Shown piece after piece: positions 23,627-61,823 of a stretch of DNA of 64,000 nt. Within the stretch, counting starts at the first letter, position 1; the number at the start of each line of letters is the position of its first letter. The DNA lies in assembly GCA_964489065.1 (NCBI GenBank), contig CAZAXH010000001.1, positions 21,106 to 85,105 on the forward strand, given 5' to 3'. The notes under the pieces were generated by a model that was not told the DNA's origin, ran no database searches, and saw nothing but the letters and a program-made list of their open reading frames with translations. Source of the DNA: an uncultured Planctomycetales bacterium. GTDB lineage: Bacteria > Omnitrophota > Gorgyraeia > Zapsychrales > JANLHA01. The position numbers and the translations under genes were made by a program.

Positions 23627-24729
23627 GAAAACGCCCTCACCAGTATTCGGATAATCCGTTTCGAAGCTTTCCCATCCCATAAAGCAGGAACACGTCCCTG
23701 CCGGGCCTGCCCCCGGAGAATCCGACGGACAAGCCCCGGCACGCGGGCGATTTTGTCCCCGACAAGAATATTGGTCCCCTCCCGTAGGGTGACCGGCCGC
23801 TCCGTGCTGGACCGCAAGGTCAAGCACGGAACATGCAGAAACGTCGTCTCCTCCTGGATGCCGCCGCTGTCCGTTAACACAAATTTCGCGTCCCGGCAGA
23901 GAGACAAAAACTCAAGATATCCCAACGGTTCAAGGCAATGCATCCGCGCCGGGATCCGGATGCGGAAGGTTTCCATAGTCTTCCGGGTCCGCGGATGTGC
24001 GGGAAAAACAACCGGAACCTGTTGGGCCACGTCGGCGATCATCGAGATCAGCCGTTTTAACTGCCGTTTATCATCAACATTCACGGGGCGGTGTAGGGTC
24101 AGGACACCGTATGTTTTCAAAAATTCCGTTAAAGGGGCGCTCGCCCAAGAACTTTTGTCCGCCTCACGGATTTTTTCAAGCCCCACGATAAGGCTGTCAA
24201 TCATCGTGTTACCGACGAAGTGAATCGTATCCGCCGCATGCCCTTCTCTCCGGAGATTGTCCACCCCGCTTGCTTCTGTCACAAACAGAAAATCCGAAAT
24301 GCTGTCCGTAACGATACGGTTCACTTCTTCCGGCATCGTCCGGTCAAAGCTTCTCAAGCCGGCCTCGACATGCGCGACCGGGATATTCAACTTTTTCGCC
24401 GCCAGGCACGCGGCCACGGTGGAGTTAACGTCCCCGACCACCACCACAACCGCAGGTTTTTCTTTAAGACAAACACGTTCGAAAGCGGTCAGGACCTTTG
24501 CCGTTTGTTCAGCGTGAGAGCCGGAACCAGCCTCCAGACAATACTGCGGGGCCGGGATGTCCAAGTCTTTAAAAAACCTGTCCGACATCGCCGCGTCATA
24601 ATGCTGGCCGGAATGCACCAGGACAGGGCGGACCGCCGGCTGGCAGCGGCATTCTTTGAGCAGACAGGCAATTTTCATAAAATTCGGCCTGGCCCCGGCG
24701 ACAAAAACAATCTTTTGTTTCCTTTTCAT
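23623..24729 (-). CDS. wecB: UDP-N-acetylglucosamine 2-epimerase (non-hydrolysing)
   Basis: 368 aa. KIVFVAGARPNFMKIA...VHSGQHYD...VVGDVNSTVAACLAAKKLNIPVAHVEAGLRSFDRTMPEEVNR. Confidence 0.88.
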   Translation of the reverse strand: MKRKQKIVFVAGARPNFMKIACLLKECRCQPAVRPVLVHSGQHYDAAMSDRFFKDLDIPAPQYCLEAGSGSHAEQTAKVLTAFERVCLKEKPAVVVVVGDVNSTVAACLAAKKLNIPVAHVEAGLRSFDRTMPEEVNRIVTDSISDFLFVTEASGVDNLRREGHAADTIHFVGNTMIDSLIVGLEKIREADKSSWASAPLTEFLKTYGVLTLHRPVNVDDKRQLKRLISMIADVAQQVPVVFPAHPRTRKTMETFRIRIPARMHCLEPLGYLEFLSLCRDAKFVLTDSGGIQEETTFLHVPCLTLRSSTERPVTLREGTNILVGDKIARVPGLVRRILRGQARQGRVPALWDGKASKRIIRILVRAFS

Positions 24730-24732
24730 AGC

Positions 24733-25926
24733 TTAGCGTCCTTCATCCTTCTGGGAGGCCAGCCCGGATCTCTGCAAATAATGAAAATAATAACTCAACG
24801 CGAAAAACATCCACGCCTGCGACCAGCGCATATAAGGGATCGTTATCCGGTAGAACCGTTTCTGCTGATAGCAAAAAAATCCGCTGGCCGTTTGCATGTG
24901 GCAGACCGTCCAGCCGATGACCTTTTCAATCAAAGCGGCGTAATCTTCCACCAAACCGGCAGTGACCGCCAGCGAAAGCAAACTGGCGGTGGCATGCACA
25001 TCCACCGGATAAACCCGGTTATTATAATACTTCGGAATGCCTTCCGGACTAAAAAAATGTTTAAAATAATAATCCAGCCCTGCCGAAAAATATTTTTGAA
25101 AACGAGTGTCTTGACTCCAGAGCTGATACCGATAGAGCGCTTCCAGGTTATAGGCCGTATGGAAGCTGTCGATCCACTGCTGATTCGGCTGTGTCCCATA
25201 AAACCAGCTCCCGTCGGGATTTTGCAGCCGGCAGCAAAAGGCCACCGAGCTCTGCGCCGCCTTAAGAAGCGCCGGATCTTTTTTATGGCAAGAAACCCGC
25301 GCCAGGAACGCGGACGCCAGCAAAGACGCGTTAATAATCCGCGAGCGGTCCACGGGCGTATAGGAAAAACAAACGTTGCCGGCGTCGTCCTCACTGCGAT
25401 TCAGGTCGTTTTGGATAAAATCCGCGACCGACAGGGCAGTACGGCACAGATCGTCCTCCCCGGTCAGTTCGTAAGCGTCCAACAACGCGTGCCCGGAAAA
25501 AGTCGAAACGATGACGTTGGGCACCCCCTGGGGGACAAAAAACGCGCGCGACTGCCAGTCAAAAGGGTATCCCCAGCAGGCGCCCGCATACCCCGTCGAT
25601 TGCCGGTCCTTGAGTATCCGGCTCAGGGTCTTTATATATTGATACGCCGGTCCCTCGGCAAACGCACGATACAGATACGTATACCCGCTCAAGAATAACG
25701 CCACGCCCTTCGGATTGTAATCCTTGGGCACCTGCAAAAACAAACGCAGGTTGACCGGGCACCGCTTGAAAAACTGCAGCCAAGCGATCCTGGCCCAGGC
25801 GTGTTCCCTTAAAAAGCTACGCTGAAAAATCCGGGAACGTAAACCGTCAAAAGGGTCCCACCCCTGAAAATTTTCCGCCTCGCAGGCCCCCCTCAAACGG
25901 TTCAAAGAATCAAGGATATAATTCAT
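24733..25926 (-). CDS. Heparinase II/III-like (alpha/alpha toroid) family protein, function unknown
   Basis: 397 aa, rich in W/Y/F. The call rests on its position next to a bi-domain oxidoreductase and asnB, a recurring neighbourhood for this family in polysaccharide loci. Confidence 0.4.
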   Translation of the reverse strand: MNYILDSLNRLRGACEAENFQGWDPFDGLRSRIFQRSFLREHAWARIAWLQFFKRCPVNLRLFLQVPKDYNPKGVALFLSGYTYLYRAFAEGPAYQYIKTLSRILKDRQSTGYAGACWGYPFDWQSRAFFVPQGVPNVIVSTFSGHALLDAYELTGEDDLCRTALSVADFIQNDLNRSEDDAGNVCFSYTPVDRSRIINASLLASAFLARVSCHKKDPALLKAAQSSVAFCCRLQNPDGSWFYGTQPNQQWIDSFHTAYNLEALYRYQLWSQDTRFQKYFSAGLDYYFKHFFSPEGIPKYYNNRVYPVDVHATASLLSLAVTAGLVEDYAALIEKVIGWTVCHMQTASGFFCYQQKRFYRITIPYMRWSQAWMFFALSYYFHYLQRSGLASQKDEGR

Positions 25927-29964: not shown

Positions 29965-31094
29965 AACTCCTCCTCGCCAGCGGTACCCCGGGATGTCCAT
30001 TCCTTCAAAAAGCGCCGCATACGGCCGTCAAAAACTTCAAAAGTGTATTCCCGCAAGAACTTGAGCCTGGCCTGTTCTCCCATATTCCACCGCCACGCGT
30101 CCTCCTGCATCAAAAATTCAATCTTTTCCGCCAACGCCGGAGCGTCCCCAGGAGGGATCACAAATCCCGTTTGATTAACATCAACAATATCCGGAATCGC
30201 CCCCTCGTCGGTCGTCACCACCGGCAAGCCATACTGCATGGCCTCCAGCAGGACAAGAGGAAAGGTGTCGTTCTGCGTCGGATAAACAAAAATGTCCGCC
30301 GACCTGAAGGCAGCGGCCTTGTCCGCCCCGCCCAGGAAACCAGGAAACGAAACCTCGCGCATCATCCCCTTTTCCTTTGCCCAAAGAGACAAATCCTTTC
30401 GGCTGACGTCAAAATCGCCTCCGGCGATACAAAGACGGAAGGGCAGTCCCTTCTCTTTCAGGTTGAAAGCAGCCTCCATCACGGTCCCTATCCCCTTGCT
30501 CCTCACCAAATTTCCCAAGAACAGAATCGTGAAAAGATGCGGCCTTTTCCTTTCTTCCCGGAGCTCCTCCCATTCCTCCTCCGGACAGGCCAAAGCCACC
30601 CCGTTGGGAACGACAGCCACCTGCGAACGGGAAACATAAGCTTGAATATCCGGATAAAGGCTCTCCGAAAGAAGAATCACCCGGGTGGCGGAAAAACAGT
30701 TTTTATATAAAAACCTCCACAACACACCCTGCCGGGAACGGACTCCCTTCCCGTGTAAATGATAGACCAGCCTCGCCCGGAAGGCCTTCACGACAAAAAC
30801 CAAAAACAGATCTTTCAAGAATCCGATTCCCGTCGGGGTAAGCGTCATATAAACGAGAGCGGGCCGTTTTCTCCGCATCATCCGTGCCAGTCTTGCGGCT
30901 AGAAGGATCGCGCCAATGGCCTTGCGCCAGGAAAAACGGTTGATCTCTTTCATCCGGGAAGATGTGTTGAGCGGCAAGACCTCGCAAGAAAATTCCGTTT
31001 GAAGGCCAGGGCTGGCCAAGAGGGCCTCATTCACCGCCGCCGGACCTATCCAGGGAGGAGGCAGGTGAACCAAAAAAAGGATTAACGGTTTCAT
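29952..31094 (-). CDS. Glycosyltransferase family 4
   Basis: GT-B with C-terminal ...FVYPTQNDTFPLVLLEAMQYGLPVVTTDEGAIPDIV... (E-x7-E motif). The start is taken at MKPLILFLV (31094). Confidence 0.8.
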   Translation of the reverse strand: MKPLILFLVHLPPPWIGPAAVNEALLASPGLQTEFSCEVLPLNTSSRMKEINRFSWRKAIGAILLAARLARMMRRKRPALVYMTLTPTGIGFLKDLFLVFVVKAFRARLVYHLHGKGVRSRQGVLWRFLYKNCFSATRVILLSESLYPDIQAYVSRSQVAVVPNGVALACPEEEWEELREERKRPHLFTILFLGNLVRSKGIGTVMEAAFNLKEKGLPFRLCIAGGDFDVSRKDLSLWAKEKGMMREVSFPGFLGGADKAAAFRSADIFVYPTQNDTFPLVLLEAMQYGLPVVTTDEGAIPDIVDVNQTGFVIPPGDAPALAEKIEFLMQEDAWRWNMGEQARLKFLREYTFEVFDGRMRRFLKEWTSRGTAGEEELCAG

Positions 31095-33049
31095 CGCGTT
31101 TCGCCGGGTTGTCCCAACGGCCGTGTCTCCGATGGACGAGAGACAAGGGACCACAATCCGGCCAGGTTCCCGGCCAACCGGTCAAAATAAATTCTCTTGT
31201 TCCGGGACAGCGCCATATACAGATTTTCCAACATCTGCCCGAAAGAAGACCACAAAAAAAGAAGTTTAGAAAATTCCTTAAATTTCCTGACGATATAAAA
31301 ACGGTTCACGATCTGCATTTTCCCGAAAAGGACATGGTCATTGCCTTCGGTATAATCCTTAATATGCTGCACCCGGGCCTCCGCAATCACAGCGAGCTTA
31401 TACGCCTTGCCCACATTATAACTGAAATCCAGGTCCTCCCCGTATCCGTAGCCTTCAAACCATTCGTCAAACCGGTACCGCTGAAAGATCTCCCGGCGCC
31501 AGACCGTCGCCCCCCCGAAAATCCAATCCGTAAAGATACTGTCATCCACCGGAGACAGCATGGCGCCGTAGCCGGACCGCATAATCCGACCTTTGGCTTC
31601 GCTTCCGGTCAAAAAAATCTTTTTCATAAAAGACGTCTTCCTCTTTTCCACATTGATAATGTTAAAAGCCGCCCCGCCCACCTCTTCCCCATTCTCTTCC
31701 CAGAACTGCAGCATATTTCGCAGGGCGCCGTCTTCCAGAATAATGTCATCGTCAAAAAAGCAGACCAGATTCACATCGGCCGCGACATGAGCCAGCCCCT
31801 GATTTTTCTGCTTGGTCAGGCAGGCATGGGAAGCCCGGACATAATAAATGGATAACTGGGGGAATCCCTCCACAAGATCTGCCACAGGTACATTCCCTCC
31901 GTCCACAATAATAATCTGCGCGATCAAATCTTTCTGAGGCACCGCACTCTCCAGAAAACGCGCGAGCACACGGCTCCGGTCGGCGGTAGGAATAATCAGG
32001 GCCATCCGCAAGGGAGCGGGCTTGCGGCCGTTATAATGCAGGCACACCGCCAGTGAGGGCGGTTTCGGGTTCAGATAAAACATGCGGGACGTGATCAACC
32101 GCAGTTTTAAATACTGGGTAAACCGTGAAGGGTATTTATGAAAAATCAACACCCCGAAGAAGCACCCCCAGGTCCTTAAGTTAAGCGGAAAAACCCGCAA
32201 GGACTGAAGAAATTCCCGGACAGCCAGCCGATAATTATCCTGCTGCCAGAGGCGCATCGCCTGCTGGCTGATTGACTGGGCCCGGAATTTCCGGTCATAC
32301 CAGAACGCGTAACGCCGCAACTTGGTTTTGACCTGCGCCAAGCCGACCGGATGGCTGCGGATCTTTTTACGGTGGACCTGGTTGGCGATCCAAAAATATT
32401 GCAGCTGCTCGACGGAACGTTCCGAGCTGATCCGCCCCCAACGGTAATCCAACAAAATTTCCTCCACCACCCCGACCCGGCCTTTCTGCTGGAGGCGCAG
32501 CCAGCAGTCATAGTCCTGGCTCACCGGGAAGTCAGGGGAATATCCGCCGATGCTTCTCAAGGCCTCCATGCGCCCGCACCAGGCTGAATGAGCCGGACGG
32601 GACCAGGGGCGATTAAAATAATCTGCGGGACAGGAGGAATGAATCGGCTGACCATCATTATTGATAATCCGGATCCAGGTCCCGACCAAAACCGTTGTCG
32701 GATACCGCAAGAGATATTCCACTTCTTTCATAATCCTCTCGGGATAAGCCCGGTCATCGCTGTCCATGCGGGCAAAGAAAACCCCCCGGGCCTGCGGGAT
32801 CAACGTGTTGAGCGCCCGGGCCAGGCCCACCCCGGGCCCCCGGAAGACTCTGATCCGGCTATCCGCCCGGGCCTGCTGAAGCAGCCATTCATAATTAGCG
32901 CAAGACAGAGAGCCGTCATCCATAATCAGGAATTCCCAATGCGTGTATATCTGACGGCAGATGCTCTCCACCGCTTCTTTCAGGTAAAGAGGGTTTTCAT
33001 CCCTGGTCGCCATCAGGACGCTCACCAAAGGCCAATCTCTCTTCGTCAT
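31091..33049 (-). CDS. Tandem two-domain family-2 glycosyltransferase
   Basis: Two GT-A modules. The first is VSVLMATRDE...MDSDD; the second is ALIIPTADRSRVL...IIIVDGG...FFDDD. The ORF extends to 33163, but the likely start is MTKRDW (33049). The upstream part lies in a repeated non-coding element. Confidence 0.75.
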   Translation of the reverse strand: MTKRDWPLVSVLMATRDENPLYLKEAVESICRQIYTHWEFLIMDDGSLSCANYEWLLQQARADSRIRVFRGPGVGLARALNTLIPQARGVFFARMDSDDRAYPERIMKEVEYLLRYPTTVLVGTWIRIINNDGQPIHSSCPADYFNRPWSRPAHSAWCGRMEALRSIGGYSPDFPVSQDYDCWLRLQQKGRVGVVEEILLDYRWGRISSERSVEQLQYFWIANQVHRKKIRSHPVGLAQVKTKLRRYAFWYDRKFRAQSISQQAMRLWQQDNYRLAVREFLQSLRVFPLNLRTWGCFFGVLIFHKYPSRFTQYLKLRLITSRMFYLNPKPPSLAVCLHYNGRKPAPLRMALIIPTADRSRVLARFLESAVPQKDLIAQIIIVDGGNVPVADLVEGFPQLSIYYVRASHACLTKQKNQGLAHVAADVNLVCFFDDDIILEDGALRNMLQFWEENGEEVGGAAFNIINVEKRKTSFMKKIFLTGSEAKGRIMRSGYGAMLSPVDDSIFTDWIFGGATVWRREIFQRYRFDEWFEGYGYGEDLDFSYNVGKAYKLAVIAEARVQHIKDYTEGNDHVLFGKMQIVNRFYIVRKFKEFSKLLFLWSSFGQMLENLYMALSRNKRIYFDRLAGNLAGLWSLVSRPSETRPLGQPGETR

Positions 33050-33080
33050 AACTCTTTTTCTCCCTGACAAGGGAACCCCC

Positions 33081-33240
33081 CGCCCATAGGCGTGGCCCCC
33101 AGAAACAATGCGCTCCGCGGAATAATCTGCTTCGTAACATACGCGCGGAGATCCCCGGAGCAACAGACCTTATTAACCTCCCGCGTTCATCCACGGGCAT
33201 GCCCGTGGTCGTCTGCAAAGGCGGATAAAAATCCATGTCA
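33081..33240. repeat. Copy A of a ~150-nt repeated leader element (second copy at 59929-60080)
   Basis: Direct alignment of the two regions shows long identical runs (caat.cgct.cgcggaat.atc..gcttc.taaca.acg.g......ccccg.a...aga.gaccttattaacct..cgc.ttcatcc.cgggcat.ccc). Identity is about 72% over ~150 nt. The core contains an 18-nt perfect palindrome ccacgggcatgcccgtgg (33191-33208). Confidence 0.6.
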
Positions 33241-35650
33241 GAAAAGCCATGGAAATAACCATTCCCCATTTAAAAACCGCGGGCCGAAAAACAAACCGGA
33301 CCGTATGCTCTCCAGCCGGGACGCCCACCGCCCACATGCACCCGTTGGCTTTCAGTAAATTTTCCCGCCGGCCGTCCACATAACAGGCCCACCCCGGATA
33401 CCACGTATTGCTGACGACCAGAAACCCGGCCCGCGGGCTGCTGACGCGATAAGCGATTTCTTCCGGAGCGTAACGCTCCGGAAGAATGCTGCTTGTCCCG
33501 GGTGCACCCTCTTTTTCCGCAGGATAAACATGTTGCCCTGGCTCCGGGGATAAAAACACCTTGTTTCCGGGGCAGACCCGGCCGTCATAAAAACCAGCCC
33601 AAAAATCCCTCTCCGGCATAACGCCGGAATCATATCTGAAAAAAGCCCGCGAGACAAAAAGATCATTCCGGTATATCCTGATCCCTCCCTCTCCTTCCCA
33701 CACCAAATGGAAATGCGCGTCATGAAGAGGGGTGTCTTCGTGAGTCAAAATATATTTCACGTTACACAGCCCTAACACTTCCGGGTCAAGCCCGCGCGCC
33801 AGGCTGCGGACCGTTCTGGGCTCCACGCTTTCATAGCCGTTGATCGTTTCAATCCCATACATAGAAAGGATATTCGGGGAATAAATCGGCTTATAATTTC
33901 TACTCATGTTATAAATCAAAACTCGGTATAAATCCTGATCTTTTTTCAAAAAATGCACGGATGAAGTCGATGGGTACAACGGGGACTCCCGGGAATCCGT
34001 CATCGGAAGCCAGTCCCGGGCGAAAAACGCGAGCTGCAACACGTTAAGAACAAGAATACCGGCCATAAAAGCCGGGTTCCTCAGGCGGCCCTGAAGATGG
34101 CCCCAAAGCAAAGCCAATCCCAGGAACATCGTTATTAACGGAAATAACATGTGCGGCGATGAAAAACGGAAATGCTCCAGGAGCTTCTCCACCCGGCTGA
34201 AATACCACGGTTGGTTTCCGGCTTGCAGGTTCGCCATCTGCATATGATTTTTCACGTAATCCATGGCCAGGTTATGCACCTGACCATAGTGCGTCAGAAG
34301 TAAAAAATTGGCGACCCCCAGTGCCGTGACCACTCCCAAAAAGACGGCAAAAAACTTTTTGACAAAAGGGCGGAACACTCCGCGGTCTTTTTGACCCAAA
34401 TAAAAAGACAGGCCAAAGGCAGACAGCACGCTCATGGCGAAAATATAAACGATAAAGAACCGATGATAAACATATTTGAGAAACGGAGTCAGCAACGGGA
34501 CGCCGATCCCCAGGGTCGCGATTCCCCAATAAACGAGAATCCTTTTATCTTGCCGGATCCCTTTGACGCTGAACACACCGAAAACAAACGGCAAAAACCC
34601 GATAAACCCGTTATAAAACATCATCGTCGTGGAGGCCAGTTTAGTTAAATCAAACGCGCGGACGTTCCCGGCCAACTGGGGAAAAACAAAACTTATCAAC
34701 CCGACAATACCCCAAAACCTCTGACTCAAAGGGACCGGCCCCTGCCCGACCTGCGCCCACTGTCCGTTTTGAAAAACATCGTAATAAAACAGCTCCAGAG
34801 TCGGAGCCAGCATCACCGCCGCGCTCCCCACGGCCAGGGCAGAAATCATCACAAACCGTTTGAGTACCGTCCTTGCCGGCGGGCGCGGCCCGCCGGCAAG
34901 CCACCCCAGGACCGCATACGCCAAAGTCAAAAACACCAAAAAACTCATCGTCTGAACAGAAGACGCCAACATCGCTATTCCCAGAAACAAACCGCATGCG
35001 GCGATATCCCTCTCCCTTCCCTCTCCCGGCTTGAGACTCCGATCCAAAAACAGGATCACCAGCGGCATCCAACAAAACGGGCCCAGAATCCAGGGGAAAA
35101 AAGCCGTGGTGACAAACATGCTATTCAGCATATAGGAAAGGCCGCCCATCAGAGCCGCTTCCCAGACAAGACCGTAATGCCTGAGCAGACCGGACATCGA
35201 CAAACCGGCGATCAGAAGCAGCGAGAAAATCTGCCAGAAATAAGCCCGTTCGACCGGGAAACCCAGCAGATAGATAATATTCGTCACATCAAAATTCCCG
35301 GCCATCGTCAGCGCATATTGCGGAAATCCCCCCAGGATAAACGGATTCCAGTAGGCGCCGCGGCCTGACTGCCAGGCGGTTTGCATGAATTTCTTATACG
35401 GCAAATACTGCACCACCACATCATTTAGAAAATGATTATACACCTGGGTGGATTTGGCCTGGGCGTACGGGAGGATCAGGGTGTTCAGCAAATCTCCGGG
35501 GAAAAGATTCTTGTCCCCTTTGAGGACAGGGACAAACAGGAGGGCCAGCATCAACACGAAAAACGTGAAAGCGCCCGGCCAGCCCCGCAATTTTTTGTCA
35601 AAAAAAACATTCTCTCTCATGAATAAATCAAACGCTCTCTTTAGTTTCAT
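33173..35650 (-). CDS. YfhO-family membrane glycosyltransferase (GT-C)
   Basis: 825 aa, with the typical YfhO N-terminal region (FVPVLKGDKNLFPGDLLNTLILPYAQ...QYLPYKKFMQTAWQSG) and more than 12 transmembrane helices. Its last ~22 codons lie within repeat copy A. Confidence 0.75.
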   Translation of the reverse strand: MKLKRAFDLFMRENVFFDKKLRGWPGAFTFFVLMLALLFVPVLKGDKNLFPGDLLNTLILPYAQAKSTQVYNHFLNDVVVQYLPYKKFMQTAWQSGRGAYWNPFILGGFPQYALTMAGNFDVTNIIYLLGFPVERAYFWQIFSLLLIAGLSMSGLLRHYGLVWEAALMGGLSYMLNSMFVTTAFFPWILGPFCWMPLVILFLDRSLKPGEGRERDIAACGLFLGIAMLASSVQTMSFLVFLTLAYAVLGWLAGGPRPPARTVLKRFVMISALAVGSAAVMLAPTLELFYYDVFQNGQWAQVGQGPVPLSQRFWGIVGLISFVFPQLAGNVRAFDLTKLASTTMMFYNGFIGFLPFVFGVFSVKGIRQDKRILVYWGIATLGIGVPLLTPFLKYVYHRFFIVYIFAMSVLSAFGLSFYLGQKDRGVFRPFVKKFFAVFLGVVTALGVANFLLLTHYGQVHNLAMDYVKNHMQMANLQAGNQPWYFSRVEKLLEHFRFSSPHMLFPLITMFLGLALLWGHLQGRLRNPAFMAGILVLNVLQLAFFARDWLPMTDSRESPLYPSTSSVHFLKKDQDLYRVLIYNMSRNYKPIYSPNILSMYGIETINGYESVEPRTVRSLARGLDPEVLGLCNVKYILTHEDTPLHDAHFHLVWEGEGGIRIYRNDLFVSRAFFRYDSGVMPERDFWAGFYDGRVCPGNKVFLSPEPGQHVYPAEKEGAPGTSSILPERYAPEEIAYRVSSPRAGFLVVSNTWYPGWACYVDGRRENLLKANGCMWAVGVPAGEHTVRFVFRPAVFKWGMVISMAFLTWIFIRLCRRPRACPWMNAGG

Positions 35651-37291: not shown

Positions 37292-37978
37292 TCATCGGAC
37301 ACGCATCTTGAGCATCAGCCCCATAATTTTAAAACCGTCTTTTAACGCGCTTAATTTAGACCGGCTCCCTTCCGGCCGCTTGCGATAAATAACTGGAGGC
37401 TCCTCGACACGAAGGCTGTTCTTAACGGCCTTCGCCGTAATTTCGGTTTCTATTTCAAAACCTTTGCTGGTAAAATTCATTTTTCGCGCCGCCTCAGAGG
37501 ACAGGGCGCGATAGCCGGACAGGATATCGGAAAACCTGGTCCCATACAATAAATTGAAAAAAGAACAAATCATCTTGTTCCCCAAAACACGATGCTGACG
37601 CCAGACCTCGCTGTTGGCCGCGTTCAAACGGTTTCCCACGACCATATCGGCCCGGCCTGCCAAAATGGGGTCAATGATCTTTCGGATATCAGACGCGCTG
37701 TACGTCGCGTCGCCGTCAACCGTAACATAAACATCCGCTTCAATTTTTTCAAACGCAATCTGCATGACACTCCCTTTTCCCTGGGTATGTTCACGCATCA
37801 CCGTCGCGCCCGCAAGCTCGGCCACATCGCACGTGCGGTCTGTAGAACAATTATCTACAACAAAAACCTCGGCCTCAGGTAGAGTGTCTTTAAAATCCCG
37901 AACCACGTCCCCGATGGTCAATTCTTCGTTAAAACAAGGAACAATGATCGCTATGCGCGGCGAGGGCGAACGCTTCAT
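37292..37978 (-). CDS. Family-2 glycosyltransferase, polyprenol-phosphate sugar transferase-like (DPM1/CsbB/GtrB type)
   Basis: 228 aa. IAIIVPCFNEELTIGDVVRDF...VFVVDNCSTD...VTVDGDATY matches the GT-A polyisoprenyl-phosphate glycosyltransferase pattern. Confidence 0.7.
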   Translation of the reverse strand: MKRSPSPRIAIIVPCFNEELTIGDVVRDFKDTLPEAEVFVVDNCSTDRTCDVAELAGATVMREHTQGKGSVMQIAFEKIEADVYVTVDGDATYSASDIRKIIDPILAGRADMVVGNRLNAANSEVWRQHRVLGNKMICSFFNLLYGTRFSDILSGYRALSSEAARKMNFTSKGFEIETEITAKAVKNSLRVEEPPVIYRKRPEGSRSKLSALKDGFKIMGLMLKMRVR

Positions 37979-54062: not shown

Positions 54063-55417
54063 GCGGCCTGCCTCTCTTTCGATTTTTTCCGGACCGCGGT
54101 TTTCACCGCATCCCAGACGCGCCGGCTGCACAGGCCGTCGCCATACCCCATATAATTCCGGATAAATTCCTGATTCTTCTCTCGGTCCATCTCAAACCTC
54201 TTCAAATGCATTTGCGGAAGCCGCTCAATCACATCCTCAATCTCCCAGGTTTCGATCACCCCGGGATAATTAAACTGCGACCCTTCCTCGGCGGAAAACC
54301 AGAAACGATGCGCCTCGTTGATAAAAAATTCCTTAGGGACGTTAATATTCAGGCAATACACCCCCGCGTAAATAGCGGCCAAAGAGGCGAAACTGTAATA
54401 CATGACGCACATACGACTGACAGTCAGTAATTCTTTCAGCATGGGCGGATTCTGCCGTTTTTCATCATCCCAGACCACCAAATCGGCCTGTTCTTTGACA
54501 TAGTCCGCGACCGGGAATTTCATCCTCGGTTTCACCACAAGATACAGATTATTCCGGGAGCAAAACTGCCGGATCGATTCAAAAACTTTCGCTTCATTCA
54601 TGCCCCGCGCCAAAAACCGGCAGCTTAAGGGGTCCTGTATAATACGCAACAAATTCCAACTTTTTTGAACAAAATCTCTAATGATATAATTTTTTTTATC
54701 ATGCGCATACGAACCGTCCGCAGCCATCGCTGTATTTGCGTAAAGCCCGCAAAAGGCTCTCTCCCATGCGGAGGAACGGTTACGGTTGCAATACGGGAAC
54801 GGCAGATAAAGAAGGACACCTTTCCCTGATGGCAACCCGTATTTCACCCGCACGGCGTCCGGATCAATGGTTTTAAACGCGTCAAACTCCGCATTCCCGG
54901 AGACCAGAATACGGGTCTTATCCGGATAAAGATAGTCCGTATATTCCGGGTGAAAATTTTTCAGGAACGCCTCCCCTTTTTCCGCGTAACTCTCGCTGTG
55001 GACAAGAAAAAGTTCTTTATTCCGCCGTTTTTTCAAAAAACCCAATTTCGGTATATAAAAAAAGTTGTCCGGTCCCGTCATCAGCGTCACCCAGGTGAAA
55101 GGAAATTCATCTAAAGACGCATCCGGGAGAGAAAATTTAAAGGGACAAATAGAAACGACCACGTCAATATTTCTTCCCTCTCTTAGTTTCTTTTCCAAAT
55201 CCTCCGGCCCCTCGAAAACGATCCCCGGCGGCCGCCCCAATCCCGGGAATTCAGGGATATGCTCGGTATCCGGGAAAGAAAAACTTTTGCTCCCCAAACG
55301 GGGAACGCTGTAGTCGTGCCAGCATTCCACACCATAGCCCCGCCGCAACGCCTCCTGAATGACCGGCGTGTAATAACGGTAATAATTCGTCCTATAAACT
55401 AAAAATACGACCCGCAT
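54059..55417 (-). CDS. Hypothetical protein (GT-B-like / capsule-synthesis-like?)
   Basis: 452 aa, soluble. Weak resemblance to TagF/Capsule_synth-type two-domain transferases. No secure motif. Confidence 0.4.
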   Translation of the reverse strand: MRVVFLVYRTNYYRYYTPVIQEALRRGYGVECWHDYSVPRLGSKSFSFPDTEHIPEFPGLGRPPGIVFEGPEDLEKKLREGRNIDVVVSICPFKFSLPDASLDEFPFTWVTLMTGPDNFFYIPKLGFLKKRRNKELFLVHSESYAEKGEAFLKNFHPEYTDYLYPDKTRILVSGNAEFDAFKTIDPDAVRVKYGLPSGKGVLLYLPFPYCNRNRSSAWERAFCGLYANTAMAADGSYAHDKKNYIIRDFVQKSWNLLRIIQDPLSCRFLARGMNEAKVFESIRQFCSRNNLYLVVKPRMKFPVADYVKEQADLVVWDDEKRQNPPMLKELLTVSRMCVMYYSFASLAAIYAGVYCLNINVPKEFFINEAHRFWFSAEEGSQFNYPGVIETWEIEDVIERLPQMHLKRFEMDREKNQEFIRNYMGYGDGLCSRRVWDAVKTAVRKKSKERQAA

Positions 55418-56078
55418 GATCCCTCCACATGTTTTGTGCGATCAAAAAATCTTCTTCCGTATCAATATCAAACAACTCCAGTTTATCATTCAACTCCACC
55501 AGATGAACTTCCTGCCAGTCCCAGTAACGGCCGTGCTGAAAAAAATAGTCCTTGGGAAAAAAATACAAAGCGTGGGCGAACTCATAGACCGGCTCCACGG
55601 TCTTGGTATTGATCGTCTGAAGCGACAAAGAAAAATTCAAAGGGTTCCGCTTCATGTCGAAATAAAAATTATGGCGTTTCACGACGCCAAACGCCGATTC
55701 CCAATTATGGTCACAGCATTGTTCCAGGAAATCAGCAATGGTTTTGACTTTTAAGAAGGGCAAACACCCGTTGATAATCAAAAAATATTGATAAGGAAGC
55801 TCCTTTAAAAAAGACAAAATCTCCGTGATGGGGCCGTCGATCATCACCGACTCCCGGCTGCGCTGGACAAACGGCACGCCGTGCGCCCGGCATTTGTCCG
55901 CGAAATCCTGTTCGTACCCGGCGAAAAACGTGTTGTCCCCCAAGGCCCGCAGCTTTTTCAGCACGATATCGGTGAGGGTCGTGTCCCCGAACGGCCGGGT
56001 CATCTTTTGAGGACAGCGCTGGCTCTGTTTCCGGCCGAAGGAAAAGACCCCGATTGTTTGCCGCTCAACGCGCGCCAT
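55392..56078 (-). CDS. Cytidylyltransferase-family protein (acylneuraminate cytidylyltransferase-like)
   Basis: N-terminal IGVFSFGRKQSQRCPQKMTRPFGDTTL resembles the ArGGSKgipkKN.r.l.g.pL motif of CMP-sugar synthetases. 228 aa. Confidence 0.5.
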   Translation of the reverse strand: MARVERQTIGVFSFGRKQSQRCPQKMTRPFGDTTLTDIVLKKLRALGDNTFFAGYEQDFADKCRAHGVPFVQRSRESVMIDGPITEILSFLKELPYQYFLIINGCLPFLKVKTIADFLEQCCDHNWESAFGVVKRHNFYFDMKRNPLNFSLSLQTINTKTVEPVYEFAHALYFFPKDYFFQHGRYWDWQEVHLVELNDKLELFDIDTEEDFLIAQNMWRDHAGRIFSL

Positions 56079-57027
56079 TCAAAAACTCCTTGAAAGATAT
56101 GTTAGGAATTCCATCGACAGGCAAAGAATATTCAAACGGTTCATAAATATTGACAAAATTCATGCCCTGGTACTTCAGGACTTTTTCCAAAGCGGCAAAC
56201 TCATGCGGCGGCCTCATAAAAGGGCGCTTGTTTTCTTTAAAATTGCCGCTAAACGCCCGCCGCGCCTTTTTAAAAAATTTCCGGTAATGCGCCATGGATT
56301 TAAACGTATAACAGGCGGCATACTCCATACTGCCCAGCATGGACATGTCCATCCCGAGGAAAAACACGGTCCGGAACCCCAAAAAATTCAAAACCGGAAA
56401 AAGGGCGATCGCCGCGGAATTCAGGAAACTGTAGTCCTTGACCCGGGGGATATCCCCGCTCTCATCCAAAGTGAAGTAGTCCCCGAGATCGAACTCCGCG
56501 TCCGCAGGCCCGATCCCGCAGGTATAAACCGGATTGGCGCCGTGGAAGCTCTCCCGGTAAGCCAAAAAATTATCTCGAAAAGCCAAGCAGGCCGTTTCCG
56601 GGAACCGGGATAATAAGTCCAGCGGGGAATCACGCAAAAAGACTTCCGTCTTGTAACGAAACCGCTTGTGCACACCGCGTTCCGGCCGGAAATCCTCGAA
56701 GAACATCCGAAAATTCTCTTTCAGGAACTGGTACTCATCCTGGTATTCATCCCGTATGAGGCCGGTCAAATCAATATCCGCCAAAAACGACTGGAAGACC
56801 ACATGCTGAAACGCGTTGGATTTGCATTTTTCCAAATAAAACATAATATAAAAATCCGGCATTAAACCGGCCTTGATGAAATACGGCGTCAGGGCCTTGC
56901 TTTCCAAAAACACCGTATAACGCGCACGGTCCACCCGTTCCAAAGGCAGCTGGTTTTCAACGATCGAAGGCCCGCCGAAGAACATCAGCGCGTCGCGCCC
57001 CGCATAAGTATTTTTCAGCCGTTTCAT
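56065..57027 (-). CDS. DUF115 / MptE-like (Maf, motility-accessory-factor-type) putative nonulosonate transferase
   Basis: GRDALMFFGGPS, the GxGPS motif near the N-terminus that defines DUF115/6-hydroxymethylpterin-diphosphokinase MptE-like proteins. Confidence 0.55.
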   Translation of the reverse strand: MKRLKNTYAGRDALMFFGGPSIVENQLPLERVDRARYTVFLESKALTPYFIKAGLMPDFYIMFYLEKCKSNAFQHVVFQSFLADIDLTGLIRDEYQDEYQFLKENFRMFFEDFRPERGVHKRFRYKTEVFLRDSPLDLLSRFPETACLAFRDNFLAYRESFHGANPVYTCGIGPADAEFDLGDYFTLDESGDIPRVKDYSFLNSAAIALFPVLNFLGFRTVFFLGMDMSMLGSMEYAACYTFKSMAHYRKFFKKARRAFSGNFKENKRPFMRPPHEFAALEKVLKYQGMNFVNIYEPFEYSLPVDGIPNISFKEFLNGAR

Positions 57028-58076
57028 GACGCAGCAATCAACTCCTTTGCCAAAGGGGTGCCGCGGCGGATATCCTTCACGGCCCTGCGCCCCAAAATCT
57101 TGTCCAGGGCTTTCGGCGGCAGCCCATAGCCCGGGCGGATCGACCGGACATTATCCGGCGTTAAACGCTCCCCGCGTTTAATATCCTGAACGGCAAAAAG
57201 AGAGCGGCGGAACACCCGGCTCTTTTTTTCCCTGTTGGTTTTCATATACGTCGCTGTCCCCAGCGCCTGTTCCGTGATCCGGATATTCTCCACCAGCATT
57301 TTAAACTCCCCCGGCTCGGTGGAAAAAAAACTGTCCGGTGTTTTGTGTTTCCGGGTCAAAGTAAAATGTTTTTCGATCATAACCGCGCCCAGGCACACCG
57401 CGGCCACTGACGCGGCCAAAGTCAGCGTGTGGTCCGAGAGCCCCACCGGGACTTTAAACCGCCTGGCCATGTCCGGGAGGACCTTCAAATTCATCTCCTG
57501 CGGTTGCGCCGGATAATTGCTGACGCATTTAAGTAAAAGAAGATCGCGACTGCCTGCCCGGCGGGCGGCCGCGACCGCATCCTCAATCTCTTCTCTCTCC
57601 GCCATCCCCGTTGACAAGATAAGCGGTTTACCGGTCCGGGCGGCGTACGCGATCAAAGGGATATCCACCAGCTCAAAAGAAGCGATCTTGTGCACCGGGA
57701 CAGCGAGCGTTTCCAGAAAATCAACGGAGGAAGCGTCAAAAGCGGTGACAAAAAACCCGAGGCCGAGGTCATCCGCCACCGTTTTCAATCTTTTAAGCCA
57801 GGACCAGGGGGTATACGCTTTCTGATAAAGCTGATACAGGGTCTGTCCGCCCCATTCCGGATGATGCACGCGAAAATATTTATTACGGGCATCGAGCGTC
57901 ATAGTGTCGGGAGTGTACGCCTGAAACTTCACCGCGTCCGCCCCGCATTCTTTTGCCTTGCGGATCATGGCCGCCGCGCGGGTAAAACTCTGCCCGTGGT
58001 TCGCGGAAATCTCCGCTACGATATACACCGGACATTGGTCTCCCACCAGTCTGTTCCCAATCTTAAACGGTTTCAT
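57024..58076 (-). CDS. pseI: Pseudaminic acid synthase / N-acetylneuraminate synthase family (full length with SAF domain)
   Basis: KIGNRLVGDQCPVYIVAEISANHGQS, and C-terminal SAF/antifreeze-like region RRSLFAVQDIKRGERLTPDNVRSIRPGYGL. 350 aa. Confidence 0.8.
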   Translation of the reverse strand: MKPFKIGNRLVGDQCPVYIVAEISANHGQSFTRAAAMIRKAKECGADAVKFQAYTPDTMTLDARNKYFRVHHPEWGGQTLYQLYQKAYTPWSWLKRLKTVADDLGLGFFVTAFDASSVDFLETLAVPVHKIASFELVDIPLIAYAARTGKPLILSTGMAEREEIEDAVAAARRAGSRDLLLLKCVSNYPAQPQEMNLKVLPDMARRFKVPVGLSDHTLTLAASVAAVCLGAVMIEKHFTLTRKHKTPDSFFSTEPGEFKMLVENIRITEQALGTATYMKTNREKKSRVFRRSLFAVQDIKRGERLTPDNVRSIRPGYGLPPKALDKILGRRAVKDIRRGTPLAKELIAAS

Positions 58077-58088
58077 CTCATTTCCCTT

Positions 58089-58550
58089 TTAGAAATCCCC
58101 ATCATAAGCATACGTTACCACCTCTTTGTCCTCGGAAAAACACCGGTACCCGGCTTTCCTGAATGCTTTGACAGACGCCTCGTTCCTTTTGATAATCCTG
58201 GCGATAACCGTGACCGCCCCGATCTCCTTCAAAAACTGTTCTGTCCCGGCCCGGATGACCCGGGATCCCAGCCCCTGCCCCAGACAGGCGGGATTGAGAT
58301 GAACGCTCACCTGCGCGCCCTGCCCCTCCGGCTCAAAACGGATGACCCCGACTTTTTCTTCCCCCCGGCGGGCGATGTAAATCCGGCAACGGGAATCGGA
58401 CATTTTCTGTTCAAACCACCGCTGATGTTCATCCCAGGGGACCACGGCGGTGTTAAAAAAGTTTTTACGGACGTCCGGGTGATTACGCCACTCCCAGATA
58501 TCCCGCATGTCCTCTTCCCAAGCCAAAGATATAACAATGTCTTCCTTCAT
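58089..58550 (-). CDS. pseH: GNAT N-acetyltransferase, PseH-like (UDP-4-amino-4,6-dideoxy-N-acetyl-beta-L-altrosamine N-acetyltransferase)
   Basis: Small GNAT (..VGVIRFE...LGQGLGSRVI..). Its position between pseI and an LmbE deacetylase in a pse cluster supports the call. The start is taken at MKEDIV (58550). Confidence 0.6.
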   Translation of the reverse strand: MKEDIVISLAWEEDMRDIWEWRNHPDVRKNFFNTAVVPWDEHQRWFEQKMSDSRCRIYIARRGEEKVGVIRFEPEGQGAQVSVHLNPACLGQGLGSRVIRAGTEQFLKEIGAVTVIARIIKRNEASVKAFRKAGYRCFSEDKEVVTYAYDGDF

Positions 58551-59227
58551 CGGACCGCCCTCACCACCTGAAAAGCTTCCGCGTACATGCATCCAGAAAC
58601 GCTTCCCCACCGCTGCGCGATGGCCAACAAACTCTTTACAGAACGGGGATGCGGCGCCGGCCGCATTTCCGATCGGTAACACCGCATCGCTTTTATTTTC
58701 TGCATAATAGTCCTCTCGACATCCATGTAAAGCGTCGGGTCAAAACTCCGGGGATACGCCCACTCCGAAGAAGACGGGACTTCGAATGCGTAAATGTCCC
58801 TGACCGGCTCTCCCTTCAGGGGCCGGCAGGCGGTCATCACCGCGTTATACGTGATACGGTGGTCAATGTTCAAATCTCCCCAATGATGCGTAAAAACCGT
58901 GTCGGGCCGGACCCGCCGTTTGATCTCTTCCAGACGCTGGACAATCCCCAAAAGGGAAACCGTGTCCAGTTTGTTGTCAGGAAGGTCGAGCTGATGCACA
59001 TCCTTCACGCCTAAGACCTGGTTGGCGGCCGTCATCTGCTCTTTCAATTTTTTCTTTTCCCGGGCCTGTTTCGCGGAAGCGCCGTCGCTGTAACGCGCGG
59101 TCACGCCTTCCCCCAGAATGACCGTGGTCACGCCATGCCCTTCTTGAACGAGCCGGGCGACCGCCGCCCCGCAGCCCAGCACCTCATCATCCGGGTGAGC
59201 CGCAACGACCAAGATTTTCTTTTTCAT
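58547..59227 (-). CDS. PIG-L/LmbE-family N-deacetylase
   Basis: ILVVAAHPDDEVLGCGAAVARL is the LmbE HPDDE zinc-binding motif. Confidence 0.8.
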   Translation of the reverse strand: MKKKILVVAAHPDDEVLGCGAAVARLVQEGHGVTTVILGEGVTARYSDGASAKQAREKKKLKEQMTAANQVLGVKDVHQLDLPDNKLDTVSLLGIVQRLEEIKRRVRPDTVFTHHWGDLNIDHRITYNAVMTACRPLKGEPVRDIYAFEVPSSSEWAYPRSFDPTLYMDVERTIMQKIKAMRCYRSEMRPAPHPRSVKSLLAIAQRWGSVSGCMYAEAFQVVRAVR

Positions 59228-59919
59228 GCCGCCTCCTTTAGGCCTATTTCGACCCGTGCGGTCAGCCGCCGGCCTTTCTTCTCCGCCGCAAAGAATTCAA
59301 ACCGCAACGCCCTGGTTTCCAGAAAAGCCCGGGGGTAACCTTCTGCGTCCAGCATGCGGATCCTATCATAGGCTTCCGGCACGGACGCCACCGGGATAAG
59401 GCTGCTTTCTTCCGGCGTCCTCCGGCGAAAAACGACCGCCTTGCCCTTCTGGGGCCGAAGGCGTATCTTGCCGCGGATAATTGCCGGCATCATACTGCCA
59501 AAAATAACAGCCGTGGCCCGCCGGTAAATTTCCTCGGCCGATCCCCGCAAACACAGCGCGCGCTTCAGATACACCGGCCCGGCGTCGAACTTTTCCGTAA
59601 CCCGGATCGCGGTGATTTTTGTCGACCGGTGTCCCCGGACAATCAGATTCTGCAAAGGGCTCCCTCCCCGTCCGTACGGCAAGTCTGTCATATGAAACGC
59701 GACGCACGGATACGCCGCATAAATATCCCGGGGGATCTTCCAGGACCAATGCGGGAAAAATATAAAATCCGGGTTGAACATTTTGACCGACGCGAGGCAT
59801 AAGTGCTCCCGGCCTGAAATCAAACGCATGGAAACGTCCGGGTTGTGTCTCCGGAAATTCCGTGCCGCTTCAATATTCCAACTTTTAACCGTCGCGATGA
59901 TAATCTTTTTCTTTTTCAT
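59224..59919 (-). CDS. Formyltransferase-family protein (Fmt N-terminal-domain-like)
   Basis: 231 aa. Formyl-transferase fold pattern (...FFPHWSWKIP..., HMTDLPYGRGGSPL). Commonly found in nonulosonate clusters. Confidence 0.55.
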   Translation of the reverse strand: MKKKKIIIATVKSWNIEAARNFRRHNPDVSMRLISGREHLCLASVKMFNPDFIFFPHWSWKIPRDIYAAYPCVAFHMTDLPYGRGGSPLQNLIVRGHRSTKITAIRVTEKFDAGPVYLKRALCLRGSAEEIYRRATAVIFGSMMPAIIRGKIRLRPQKGKAVVFRRRTPEESSLIPVASVPEAYDRIRMLDAEGYPRAFLETRALRFEFFAAEKKGRRLTARVEIGLKEAA

Positions 59920-59928
59920 GGAGCCTCG

Positions 59929-60080
59929 CGCCCACGGGCGTGTTGCCTATTAACAATTCGCTTCGCGGAATCATCCGGCTTCTTAACACACGTGCCGTCC
60001 CCGAAAGAGAAGACCTTATTAACCTTTCGCTTTCATCCCCGGGCATACCCCCGGTCTTCGGCGAAGAGGGATGAAAACTA
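59929..60080. repeat. Copy B of the ~150-nt repeated leader element (first copy at 33081-33240)
   Basis: Aligns to 33081-33240 at about 72% identity, including the shared block gaccttattaacct. Here it is fully intergenic, between the pseG stop (60078) and the formyltransferase start (59919). Confidence 0.6.
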
Positions 60081-61091
60081 CCGAAACTGCATCGCCCTCT
60101 TGTTAACCACCGCGTCCACGATCCGGAACGCGCCCTGGCCGTCCACGCAGGCTTGCCCGGCAGCGGCTAACCTTTGACGCGGCGCTTTATCTTTATGCTT
60201 TCTTAAAGCCTCCCGCAACCGGGCGGACACGCCGGGATCACCGATTCTACCGCAATCCTCAATAACGCCCTTATGCTTTAACCCGCGGATGTTCGCGGCC
60301 TGATTATCCGCCACACACACCGCCAAGGCCGGGACCCCGCACCGGGCCAATTCATACAAAGTCTGTCCACCCGCCGAAACCGCCAGATCCGCTTCCAGCA
60401 TGCGGGCCTTCATCTGTTGGGCATCCAGGGCCGCGATAAACTCGGTCTGCCCGTCCGCCTGTCCAAAAAAATCGGCGGCAGGCGCACAACCGTGTCCTAA
60501 AACAACCGTCTTCCTGGCAGAAGGATACTCCGCTTTGACCGTCTGATAACAAAGCGGCGTAGCCTGTTTCATATCGCTGCCGCCCAGCGTCAACAAAATA
60601 TGCCCGACACTTTCGCTAACAGACCTTGGGGGGACGTCCCAGAACACCAAGCGTAAAGGCACATAACCTTCCCCCAGCAAATAAACAGTCCCTTCCCGGG
60701 CTGGGTATGAAAACTGTTCCGGATAGGCCGCGGCGTTGACGACAAACCCGGACGGATAAGATAACCGCTCATAGTCATCCAGGAAAACAGCGACACGCAC
60801 GGCTTCCGACACCGTGCGGTAAACAGCTTCCGGCGCCCAATAGGAATCGATCACAACCACATCCGGCTCCGCGGCGGCCAGAAGCCTGCCCAAATGATTG
60901 CCTTCGAACCAGCATCCCACATCACTGTTCATGCCCTTCGTGAACGCTGCCACCGACCCATCACCGTTAATGACCAGGTGCGGGGTAAAATTCCTGGACG
61001 CAAAAGCCTGGTATAAAGCCGCACACCGGGCGATATGCCCGAACCCGAACTGCGCTCCCCCTTCCGTGAGGATCAAAACTTCGCTCTTCAT
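60078..61091 (-). CDS. pseG: UDP-2,4-diacetamido-2,4,6-trideoxy-beta-L-altropyranose hydrolase (PseG, GT28-like)
   Basis: MKSEVLILTEGGAQFGFGHIARCAALYQAF is the PseG N-terminal pattern. C-terminal GT-B domain. 337 aa. Confidence 0.75.
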   Translation of the reverse strand: MKSEVLILTEGGAQFGFGHIARCAALYQAFASRNFTPHLVINGDGSVAAFTKGMNSDVGCWFEGNHLGRLLAAAEPDVVVIDSYWAPEAVYRTVSEAVRVAVFLDDYERLSYPSGFVVNAAAYPEQFSYPAREGTVYLLGEGYVPLRLVFWDVPPRSVSESVGHILLTLGGSDMKQATPLCYQTVKAEYPSARKTVVLGHGCAPAADFFGQADGQTEFIAALDAQQMKARMLEADLAVSAGGQTLYELARCGVPALAVCVADNQAANIRGLKHKGVIEDCGRIGDPGVSARLREALRKHKDKAPRQRLAAAGQACVDGQGAFRIVDAVVNKRAMQFR

Positions 61092-61823
61092 TTATGGCGT
61101 CCTGGCCTCGCCGGCCATTTGATATTTCATGTAAAACTCTGCTTTCAGGAAATCCTGTTCATAATCAATTTCAGTGGCATAACGCTCGTCATGAACGAGA
61201 AGAGTCACCCGCTCTCCCATATAGGCGTGCACTTTTAAAACTCCGGCCGCCGCCAGCAATGTCTCTCTCTTTAAAACGATAACGGCCCCGTCCAATAAAT
61301 ACAGCGGGGGCAGATCCTGCATGCGGTAAGCGTGCGCCGACGGCATAAAAGGACGGACCAACCCGCTCTCGGGATCCAAGATTTTCATCCATTCCGGCCG
61401 CTGGCCAATTGTGTACGCAGTGGCCACGGCGGTGAAATCAGGGTGGGCCAGCAGTTTTTCCACCGCCTCATCAATCTCCCCCTCCTTGCGGATGGGAACA
61501 TTCGCCTGCAGGGCCACAACAACGTCAAAAATTTTTCCTGTCGCCTTTTCTTGCACTTGTAAGGCATGACGAAGAGCATCGTCGAACGGGGACGTGTCCC
61601 GGGCCAATTCCGCCGGCCGCATCACGACCGCCGCGCCACACTTTTGCGCGACCGCCGCAATCTGATCATTATCGGTGGATACAACCACCTTGTCACAAAG
61701 ACAGCTCTTGAGCGCCATCTCGACCGCATACGCCATAAGCGGCTTGCCGCAAAGGGGCCGCACATTCTTCATCGGCGCGCGTTGGCTGCCGCCCCGGGCG
61801 GGGATCACGCAAAGCACATTCAT
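61092..61823 (-). CDS. pseF: Pseudaminic acid cytidylyltransferase / CMP-nonulosonate synthetase family
   Basis: VIPARGGSQRAPMKNVRPLCGKPLMAYAV is the CMP-NeuAc synthetase-family N-terminal motif. The start is taken at MNVLCV (61823). Confidence 0.8.
   Translation of the reverse strand: MNVLCVIPARGGSQRAPMKNVRPLCGKPLMAYAVEMALKSCLCDKVVVSTDNDQIAAVAQKCGAAVVMRPAELARDTSPFDDALRHALQVQEKATGKIFDVVVALQANVPIRKEGEIDEAVEKLLAHPDFTAVATAYTIGQRPEWMKILDPESGLVRPFMPSAHAYRMQDLPPLYLLDGAVIVLKRETLLAAAGVLKVHAYMGERVTLLVHDERYATEIDYEQDFLKAEFYMKYQMAGEARTP

Follow-up and report, generated by a model that had tools for sequence, protein, structure and literature searches.

Two copies of a short non-coding repeat at gene junctions of an Omnitrophota glycan operon are insertions, probably of a PATE-like mobile element

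Short mobile repeats and their likeness to the glycan operon element

Bacterial MITEs of the terminal inverted repeat (TIR) type, such as Correia/NEMIS of Neisseria and ERIC/IRU of enterobacteria, are non-coding, 100-160 nt long and found at transcribed intergenic positions. Their presence varies among close relatives; they can change the expression of neighbouring genes and are defined by their TIRs together with a target duplication of fixed length (TA for Correia). The REP, BIME and REPIN sequences are G+C-rich hairpins located inside operons after stop codons. They are spread by an HUH enzyme related to the TnpA of IS200 and may stabilise the upstream mRNA; the REP units are palindromes of 20-40 nt, very numerous and often arranged as inverted pairs. 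Rickettsia palindromic elements (RPE) are read as parts of proteins, while the mycobacterial MIRUs lie in sense orientation at the stop/start junctions of operons.

For IS608, cleavage takes place 3' of TTAC, 19 nt 5' of the left hairpin, and on the right at TCAA, 10 nt 3' of the right hairpin (PMC3201880). No target duplication is formed, and it is the transposon end that recognises the target, through base pairing (PMC3201880, PMC5934647). Members of the IS200/IS605 family insert into the lagging-strand template (PMC5027513). For IS605-family elements of Geobacillus the TAMs TTTAT and TTCAT were reported, and gene-less, PATE-like derivatives exist there (PMC10055086).

The element described here was found twice, as copies A and B, in the window, i.e., the whole 64-kb stretch of DNA that was analysed; an orthologue of copy A, named A2, is carried by a sister species. 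With the TIR-type MITEs it shares its size, its non-coding nature, its transcribed intergenic site and its presence or absence among relatives, but no TIR was detectable in it. Like the REP sequences it possesses G+C-rich hairpins inside an operon just past a stop codon, whereas its 150 nt are mostly non-palindromic. Copy A is read into protein as a new C-terminal tail of YfhO, which is reminiscent of the RPEs; however, no conserved reading frame runs through the element. As for the MIRUs, the copies are sense-oriented at stop/start junctions of the operon, but they are not tandemly repeated and no small coupling ORF joins the flanking genes. The PATEs, gene-less derivatives of IS200/IS605, are likewise short and non-coding, lack TIRs, have hairpins near both ends and lie 3' of a short motif. 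The element differs from them in that its two hairpins are only loosely alike and that the pairing of a right-end guide with a cleavage motif was not recognised; a possible 3-bp duplication would not fit either. Judged by these sequence features, the PATE is the closest known kind, while the TIR-type MITE, the REP/BIME and the MIRU are each defined by a feature that our tests did not find in the element.

Overall, the two stretches of about 150 nt are probably copies of a non-coding, non-autonomous mobile DNA element of an Omnitrophota lineage, PATE-like and moved by a TnpA of the IS200/IS605 type. For the broader statement, namely that mobile insertions and not a conserved leader were found, our confidence is high. 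The sequence family of the element appears to be undescribed; the kind of element is well known.

Extent, copy number and insertion history of the repeat

Using BLASTN with positions 33050-33240 against the window, a match at 59920-60077 was obtained, and copies A and B were found to be 74.5% identical over 161 columns (E = 6e-24). The similarity of two regions, reported by a first-pass annotation of the window, is therefore real, as are the long identical runs, which were recovered in a MAFFT alignment of both copies; GACCTTATTAACCT occurs exactly twice in the window (33166-33179 and 60012-60025). The perfect 18-nt palindrome noticed in copy A is also present. Almost every gene of the window belongs to one long block for glycan synthesis on the minus strand, and the GC skew of the plus strand is negative throughout. 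The element is therefore best read along with the operon, on the minus strand, which is the sense strand of all flanking genes. All features are summarized in Table 1. For copy A, whose right end is decayed in the window, this boundary was placed from alignments with its orthologue A2 and the empty sites. Both copies had been positioned directly after the stop codon of the upstream gene, with 10-30 nt left to the next start. This description required correction, as the YfhO ORF runs 52 nt into copy A and terminates at the element's own TAA, and as the final AT of copy B supplies the A and T of the ATG that starts the formyltransferase gene (59919-59917).

Table 1. Coordinates of the element copies, their parts and the flanking genes in the window
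Feature	Position	Strand	Description and basis
Copy A	33070-33224	-	155 nt; first base C33224; nhmmer, BLASTN and alignment of filled (L016) and empty (L017, L018) sites
Copy B	59918-60070	-	153 nt; alignment with empty sites L003, L006, L013, L015
Flank TTTAT of copy A	33225-33229	-	directly 5' of copy A; target-derived, TAM-like; in empty site L018 as TTTAT/GG (slash, boundary)
Flank TTCAT of copy B	60071-60075	-	directly 5' of copy B; empty-site alignment
HP1 of copy A	33191-33208	-	left subterminal hairpin; perfect 18-nt palindrome CCACGGGCATGCCCGTGG, 16 nt inside left end
HP1 of copy B	60037-60054	-	left subterminal hairpin; CCGGG-N6-CCCGG, 16 nt inside left end
ATGAA box of copy A	33186-33190	-	directly 3' of HP1
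Conserved block AGGTTAATAAGGTCT	33165-33179 (A), 60011-60025 (B)	-	A/B alignment
HP3 of copy A	33078-33095	-	right subterminal hairpin; core CGCC-N4-GGCG, about 8 nt before right end
HP3 core of copy B	59929-59940	-	CGCC-CGTG-GGCG, 11 nt before right end
YfhO-family gene	33173-35650	-	upstream of copy A; Pfam
Element-encoded YfhO tail	33173-33224	-	IRLCRRPRACPWMNAGG and stop TAA (33175-33173)
Tandem GT2 glycosyltransferase gene	31091-33049	-	downstream of copy A; ATG 33049-33047
PseG-like gene	60078-61091	-	upstream of copy B; stop TAG 60080-60078
Formyltransferase gene	59224-59919	-	downstream of copy B

A third copy was not found in the window, where all other BLASTN matches had E-values of at least 0.4 with the exception of the element's internal palindrome. 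Searching the window and 30 related loci by nhmmer with a three-sequence profile (A, A2, B) yielded the known copies only, with no additional ones in about 100 kb of window and sister species, nor in the ~35 kb of related sequence outside the 64-kb window. A strict exact-pattern scan of the GTDB representative genomes, with patterns that would miss A2, which is without the AGGTTAATAAGGTC block, gave one chance-like match among the matches listed, at about 5 expected by chance. It is GATGAAGCCTTAGGTTAATAAGGTC of the Akkermansiaceae bacterium UBA1518 (DCQM01000213.1; L001, 3438-3462), intergenic, 62 nt upstream of a gene start and following a terminator-like hairpin. As a family copy it was rejected, being at chance level and not extended in similarity by nhmmer. 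The strict pattern scan of the JGI metagenomes likewise gave one match among the matches listed, which lies inside an ORF of a low-GC contig and is attributed to chance; scans of viral contigs and a distant BLASTN search against plasmids gave nothing. The material consists of three distinct element sequences, A, A2 and B, from two independent insertion events. The blocks CCGCG[A/G]AGCG[A/C]ATTGTT and GGATGAA are common to all three, while in AGGTTAATAAGGTCT, the longest block common to A and B, A2 (GGTTAACAAAGCCGG) departs from them at 5 of 15 positions.

The window derives from a Candidatus Omnitrophota genome, and among named proteins those most similar to its formyltransferase and its YfhO carry this annotation. 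At site B, relatives with formyltransferases 88%, 84% and 74% identical to that of the window show the same gene order without the element. There, the PseG-like and formyltransferase genes overlap by ATGA or lie 4 nt apart, and the window carries 153 nt more, in a clean alignment gap. At site A, relatives with YfhO proteins of 70-74% identity have YfhO overlapping GT2 by 8 nt, and the window exceeds them by 155 nt. The sister species (L016, L021-L030), of about 92-94% DNA identity to the window, carries the element at site A, and its A2 copies are all identical to each other. On its contig Ga0116236_10000019 site A is filled (L022) and site B is empty (L006). A further contig from Logan (L019) is 99.98% identical to the window, represents the same strain and adds 3.8 kb. 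From these alignments, both copies are insertions at two junctions of translationally coupled genes of the glycan operon, resulting from independent events, and of the origins proposed in the first-pass annotation it was the small mobile repeat that was supported. As site A is filled and site B empty on one sister-species contig, A is older than the split of the two species, and B was inserted later, in the lineage of the window only. B is 76% identical to A, the orthologous A2 83%. Being less like A than A2 is and nevertheless inserted later, B cannot have been copied from A recently, but must derive from another, unseen source copy. That additional family members exist or existed is indirectly suggested by this divergence of B from A, the sole evidence on the point.

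Some observations on the gene content of the window were made along the way. A GT2 gene of 228 aa (37292-37978) is also present in L017 and L018 and missing from the sister species (L016, L021-L030), where the alignment shows a gap of 534 nt; this suggests a recent deletion of the gene in the glycan locus of that species. The only long ORF on the plus strand (24220-25698, 492 aa) matches no Pfam or NCBIfam family, its translation is oddly rich in R, H and K, and it is probably a spurious antisense ORF. In its place the sister species has two genes on the sense strand, one of 397 aa (no Pfam) followed by an Epimerase_2 gene (368 aa), and the genes in this part of the window deserve re-calling.

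Target flanks, ends and proposed route of transposition

By comparison with the empty sites, the left boundary was placed directly 3' of TTTAT (A, A2) or TTCAT (B). The sequence TTTAT/G was found in empty sites at both loci (L018, L013), and at site B the empty sites read TTTAT/G (L013), TCTAT/G (L003) and ATTAT/G (L015). TTYAT makes up 0.46% of the positions on the minus strand, so that its occurrence at both sites by chance has a probability of about 2e-5 to 2e-4, the latter figure applying when the boundary register is allowed to vary. The window copy A, and only this copy, is bracketed as a whole by a 9-nt inverted repeat, CTGACATGG at 33233-33241 and CCTTGTCAG at 33064-33072 (minus strand), which extends to the ribosome-binding region of GT2. 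This repeat is not found in A2, where the right flank is still like that of the empty sites.

In A, A2 and B the G+C-rich hairpin HP1 starts at a distance of 16 nt from the left end, and in A2 and B the core of HP3 is found 9-11 nt before the right end. The two hairpins resemble each other loosely. Their stability compared to shuffled sequences is modest, with z-scores of -1.5 to -2.9 on the left and -1.4 to +0.3 on the right. The ATGAA box, invariant among A, A2 and B, is TTCAT in reverse complement, and in B it forms base pairs with the flank GTTTTCATCC. In HP1 of A2 and in the helix of flank and ATGAA box of A, G·T pairs are tolerated on the sense strand only. The tetranucleotide A(C/A)GA before HP1 can form three of four pairs with TYAT. 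A right-end guide tetranucleotide pairing with a cleavage motif was not recognised in the element.

The pentanucleotide target, the lack of inverted repeats, the hairpins of one strand near both ends and the fixed orientation on the G-rich strand form the basis for reading the element as a PATE. In this case it would be mobilised in trans as single-stranded DNA by a TnpA of the IS200/IS605 (HUH/Y1) type and would insert 3' of its TAM without target duplication. The distances of the hairpins from the ends are close to those of IS608, with 16 versus 19 nt on the left and 9-11 versus 10 nt on the right (PMC3201880), and the flanks TTTAT and TTCAT are the very TAMs reported for Geobacillus (PMC10055086). 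Both copies have the same strand orientation, and such strand specificity is consistent with a lagging-strand template as used by IS200/IS605. No gene for TnpA, TnpB or another transposase was found in the 64-kb window. By analogy, we infer peel-and-paste transposition of the IS200/IS605 type as the most likely mechanism; taking mobile insertion as given, we place this route slightly short of an even call. An extended form of the PATE reading is improbable: the right ~100 nt would represent a guide RNA scaffold of the TnpB/IscB type, used by TnpB in trans. With the element sense-oriented in an operon of high expression, read-through would then produce an omega-RNA with the start of the downstream gene as guide, and a TnpB encoded elsewhere would cut empty sites again and thereby keep the element in place. 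In a milder variant, a co-opted hairpin module inside the operon would reset the expression ratio of the glycan genes.

Among the other modes of transposition, cut-and-paste movement of a MITE-like element by a DDE transposase, with a 3-bp (YAT) target duplication in T-rich sequence and TIRs that are very short or decayed, is unlikely, although it retains some weight. The last three bases of the insert equal the three bases before its left end, with CAT...CAT around B and TAT...TAT around A2, i.e., they co-vary with the site. This boundary repeat could stem from duplication of 3 bp of the target, or else belong to a transposon-encoded motif (TEM) that resembles the target and ends there. A duplication would account for the co-variation more simply than a coincidence of TAM and TEM and, if real, would argue against IS200/IS605. 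A length of ~150 nt and an intergenic site are also typical of bacterial MITEs. However, the co-variation comprises one variable base in two events, the conserved 5' flank TTYAT is longer than 3 bp, and significant TIRs were absent from A, A2 and B: in local alignments of the first 45 nt with the reverse complement of the last 45 nt, the score was beaten by 188-330 of 500 shuffled sequences. A REP/BIME- or REPIN-like repeat, spread by a RAYT (TnpA-REP) and serving as a hairpin that stabilises mRNA or partitions expression in operons, would depend on an HUH enzyme just as IS200/IS605 does, and the G+C-rich hairpins within the operon just past a stop codon and the missing TIRs would suit it. We consider it quite improbable nevertheless, as the unit is neither a 20-40-nt palindrome nor an inverted pair but 150 nt of mostly non-palindromic sequence, has no conserved head of the GTAG type and no inverted-dimer organisation, and occurs just twice in 64 kb, a low number next to the usual great abundance of REPs.

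Function of the element and consequences for the operon

The first-pass annotation had considered a shared cis-regulatory leader. A functional RNA leader of two glycan sub-operons, be it an attenuator, a riboswitch or a protein-binding site, primary or acquired after insertion, has a low probability in the light of the present data, and the proposal is not supported. In its favour, the two copies lie in sense orientation and are transcribed as part of the operon, pairing in some stems is preserved through G·U changes, one pair has a compensatory change, and the sequence blocks common to all three copies would also agree with such a role. Against it, close relatives run the operon without the element at the same junctions, and the longest block common to A and B is not kept in A2. 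Between A and A2, substitutions are found at 27 of 159 aligned sites (17.0%) in addition to indels, compared to 218 of 2084 four-fold degenerate sites (10.5%) in nine flanking genes (Fisher p = 0.017); by this measure the element drifts at or above the neutral rate, with no sequence constraint. RNAalifold applied to A, A2 and B, a set of three sequences with low power, gave an unfavourable covariation term of +2.23 with 1 of 46 pairs compensatory and several broken. Folding z-scores versus shuffled sequences were -2.2 for copy A and -0.1 for copy B. Scanning the whole window with Rfam 15 at gathering thresholds gave no match, and with E-values up to 10 nothing at locus A and two chance-level matches at locus B (trpB motif, 20.9 bits versus a threshold of 59; CRISPR-DR37, 17.6 versus 40). 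Neither a sigma-70-like promoter nor an intrinsic terminator was found in the element, so that the promoter and terminator readings were rejected for want of a consensus; with the operon of close relatives also lacking the element, the internal promoter module suggested earlier was abandoned as well. A recombination scar, or a local duplication of a gene end from exchange of glycan cassettes, is very improbable. Glycan loci are hot spots of recombination, and the identity to the sister species shifts at site B from 87.9% upstream (60090-64000) to 92.4% downstream (55229-59922), where a recombination breakpoint may lie in the junction (~59920-60090). However, this reading is largely refuted by empty sites that are precise to the base. 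At two junctions unrelated to each other, the same foreign sequence follows the same pentanucleotide, and it is unlike either flanking gene or anything else in the window, which also disposes of the gene-end duplication that the first-pass annotation had named as the case against its own proposal.

Further candidates were tried and rejected. The first-pass annotation had judged the conservation over plus-strand ORFs covering the copies to lie at the RNA/DNA level; the non-coding reading was upheld, while the element reads on the minus strand. No frame is common to the copies: A and B are out of register in every frame owing to a 1-nt indel, and the frame concerned is interrupted by stops in A2. 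The six-frame translation of A, A2 and B, concatenated, had no match among 5.8 billion proteins, and the single frame open throughout copy B likewise had none among 1.84 billion representative proteins. A MIRU-like coupling ORF was dismissed, since the open stretch of copy B ending on ATGA has no start codon and the frames differ between the copies. The core motifs of integron attC sites and of JUMPstart/ops are absent.

For the mobile element favoured here, the consequences for the operon can be read from the junctions. At site A, the Pfam match of YfhO stops at residue 800 of 825, and the C-terminus of the window protein is ...IFIRLCRRPRACPWMNAGG, compared to ...IFTVMGKTGHA or similar in relatives with an empty site; the insertion would have exchanged the last nine residues of YfhO for 17 residues encoded by the element. 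At site B, GAGG is found five bases upstream of the formyltransferase ATG, a motif absent from the relatives, so that copy B would have placed a G-rich, SD-like stretch before this gene. Copy B with its 153 nt is a multiple of three, in contrast to copy A with 155 nt, and the old PseG-like frame therefore still runs through B to the original ATGA overlap. It is broken only by the upstream TAG, which is CAG in the relatives, and by one TGA within the element. With the insertions, the start/stop overlap would have been lost at two junctions and RNA hairpins added to the operon mRNA. As with REP or MITE insertions elsewhere, the expression ratios of the neighbouring glycan genes could be altered. 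These effects look like by-products and not like a selected function, there being no sign of selection for them.

With the riboswitch or leader struck from the list of candidates, the finding is a fairly ordinary one. In its place stands a dated insertion history, with A inserted before and B after the split of two Omnitrophota species of ~93% identity. For an uncultured phylum it illustrates that small mobile repeats can break the translational coupling of a glycan operon and rewrite the C-terminus of a protein without the genes being destroyed. If the link to IS200/IS605 were true, the element would be a marker of active transposition via single strands in Omnitrophota, perhaps accompanied by TnpB guide RNAs, and TTYAT would provide a compact definition of end and TAM for locating the autonomous partner.
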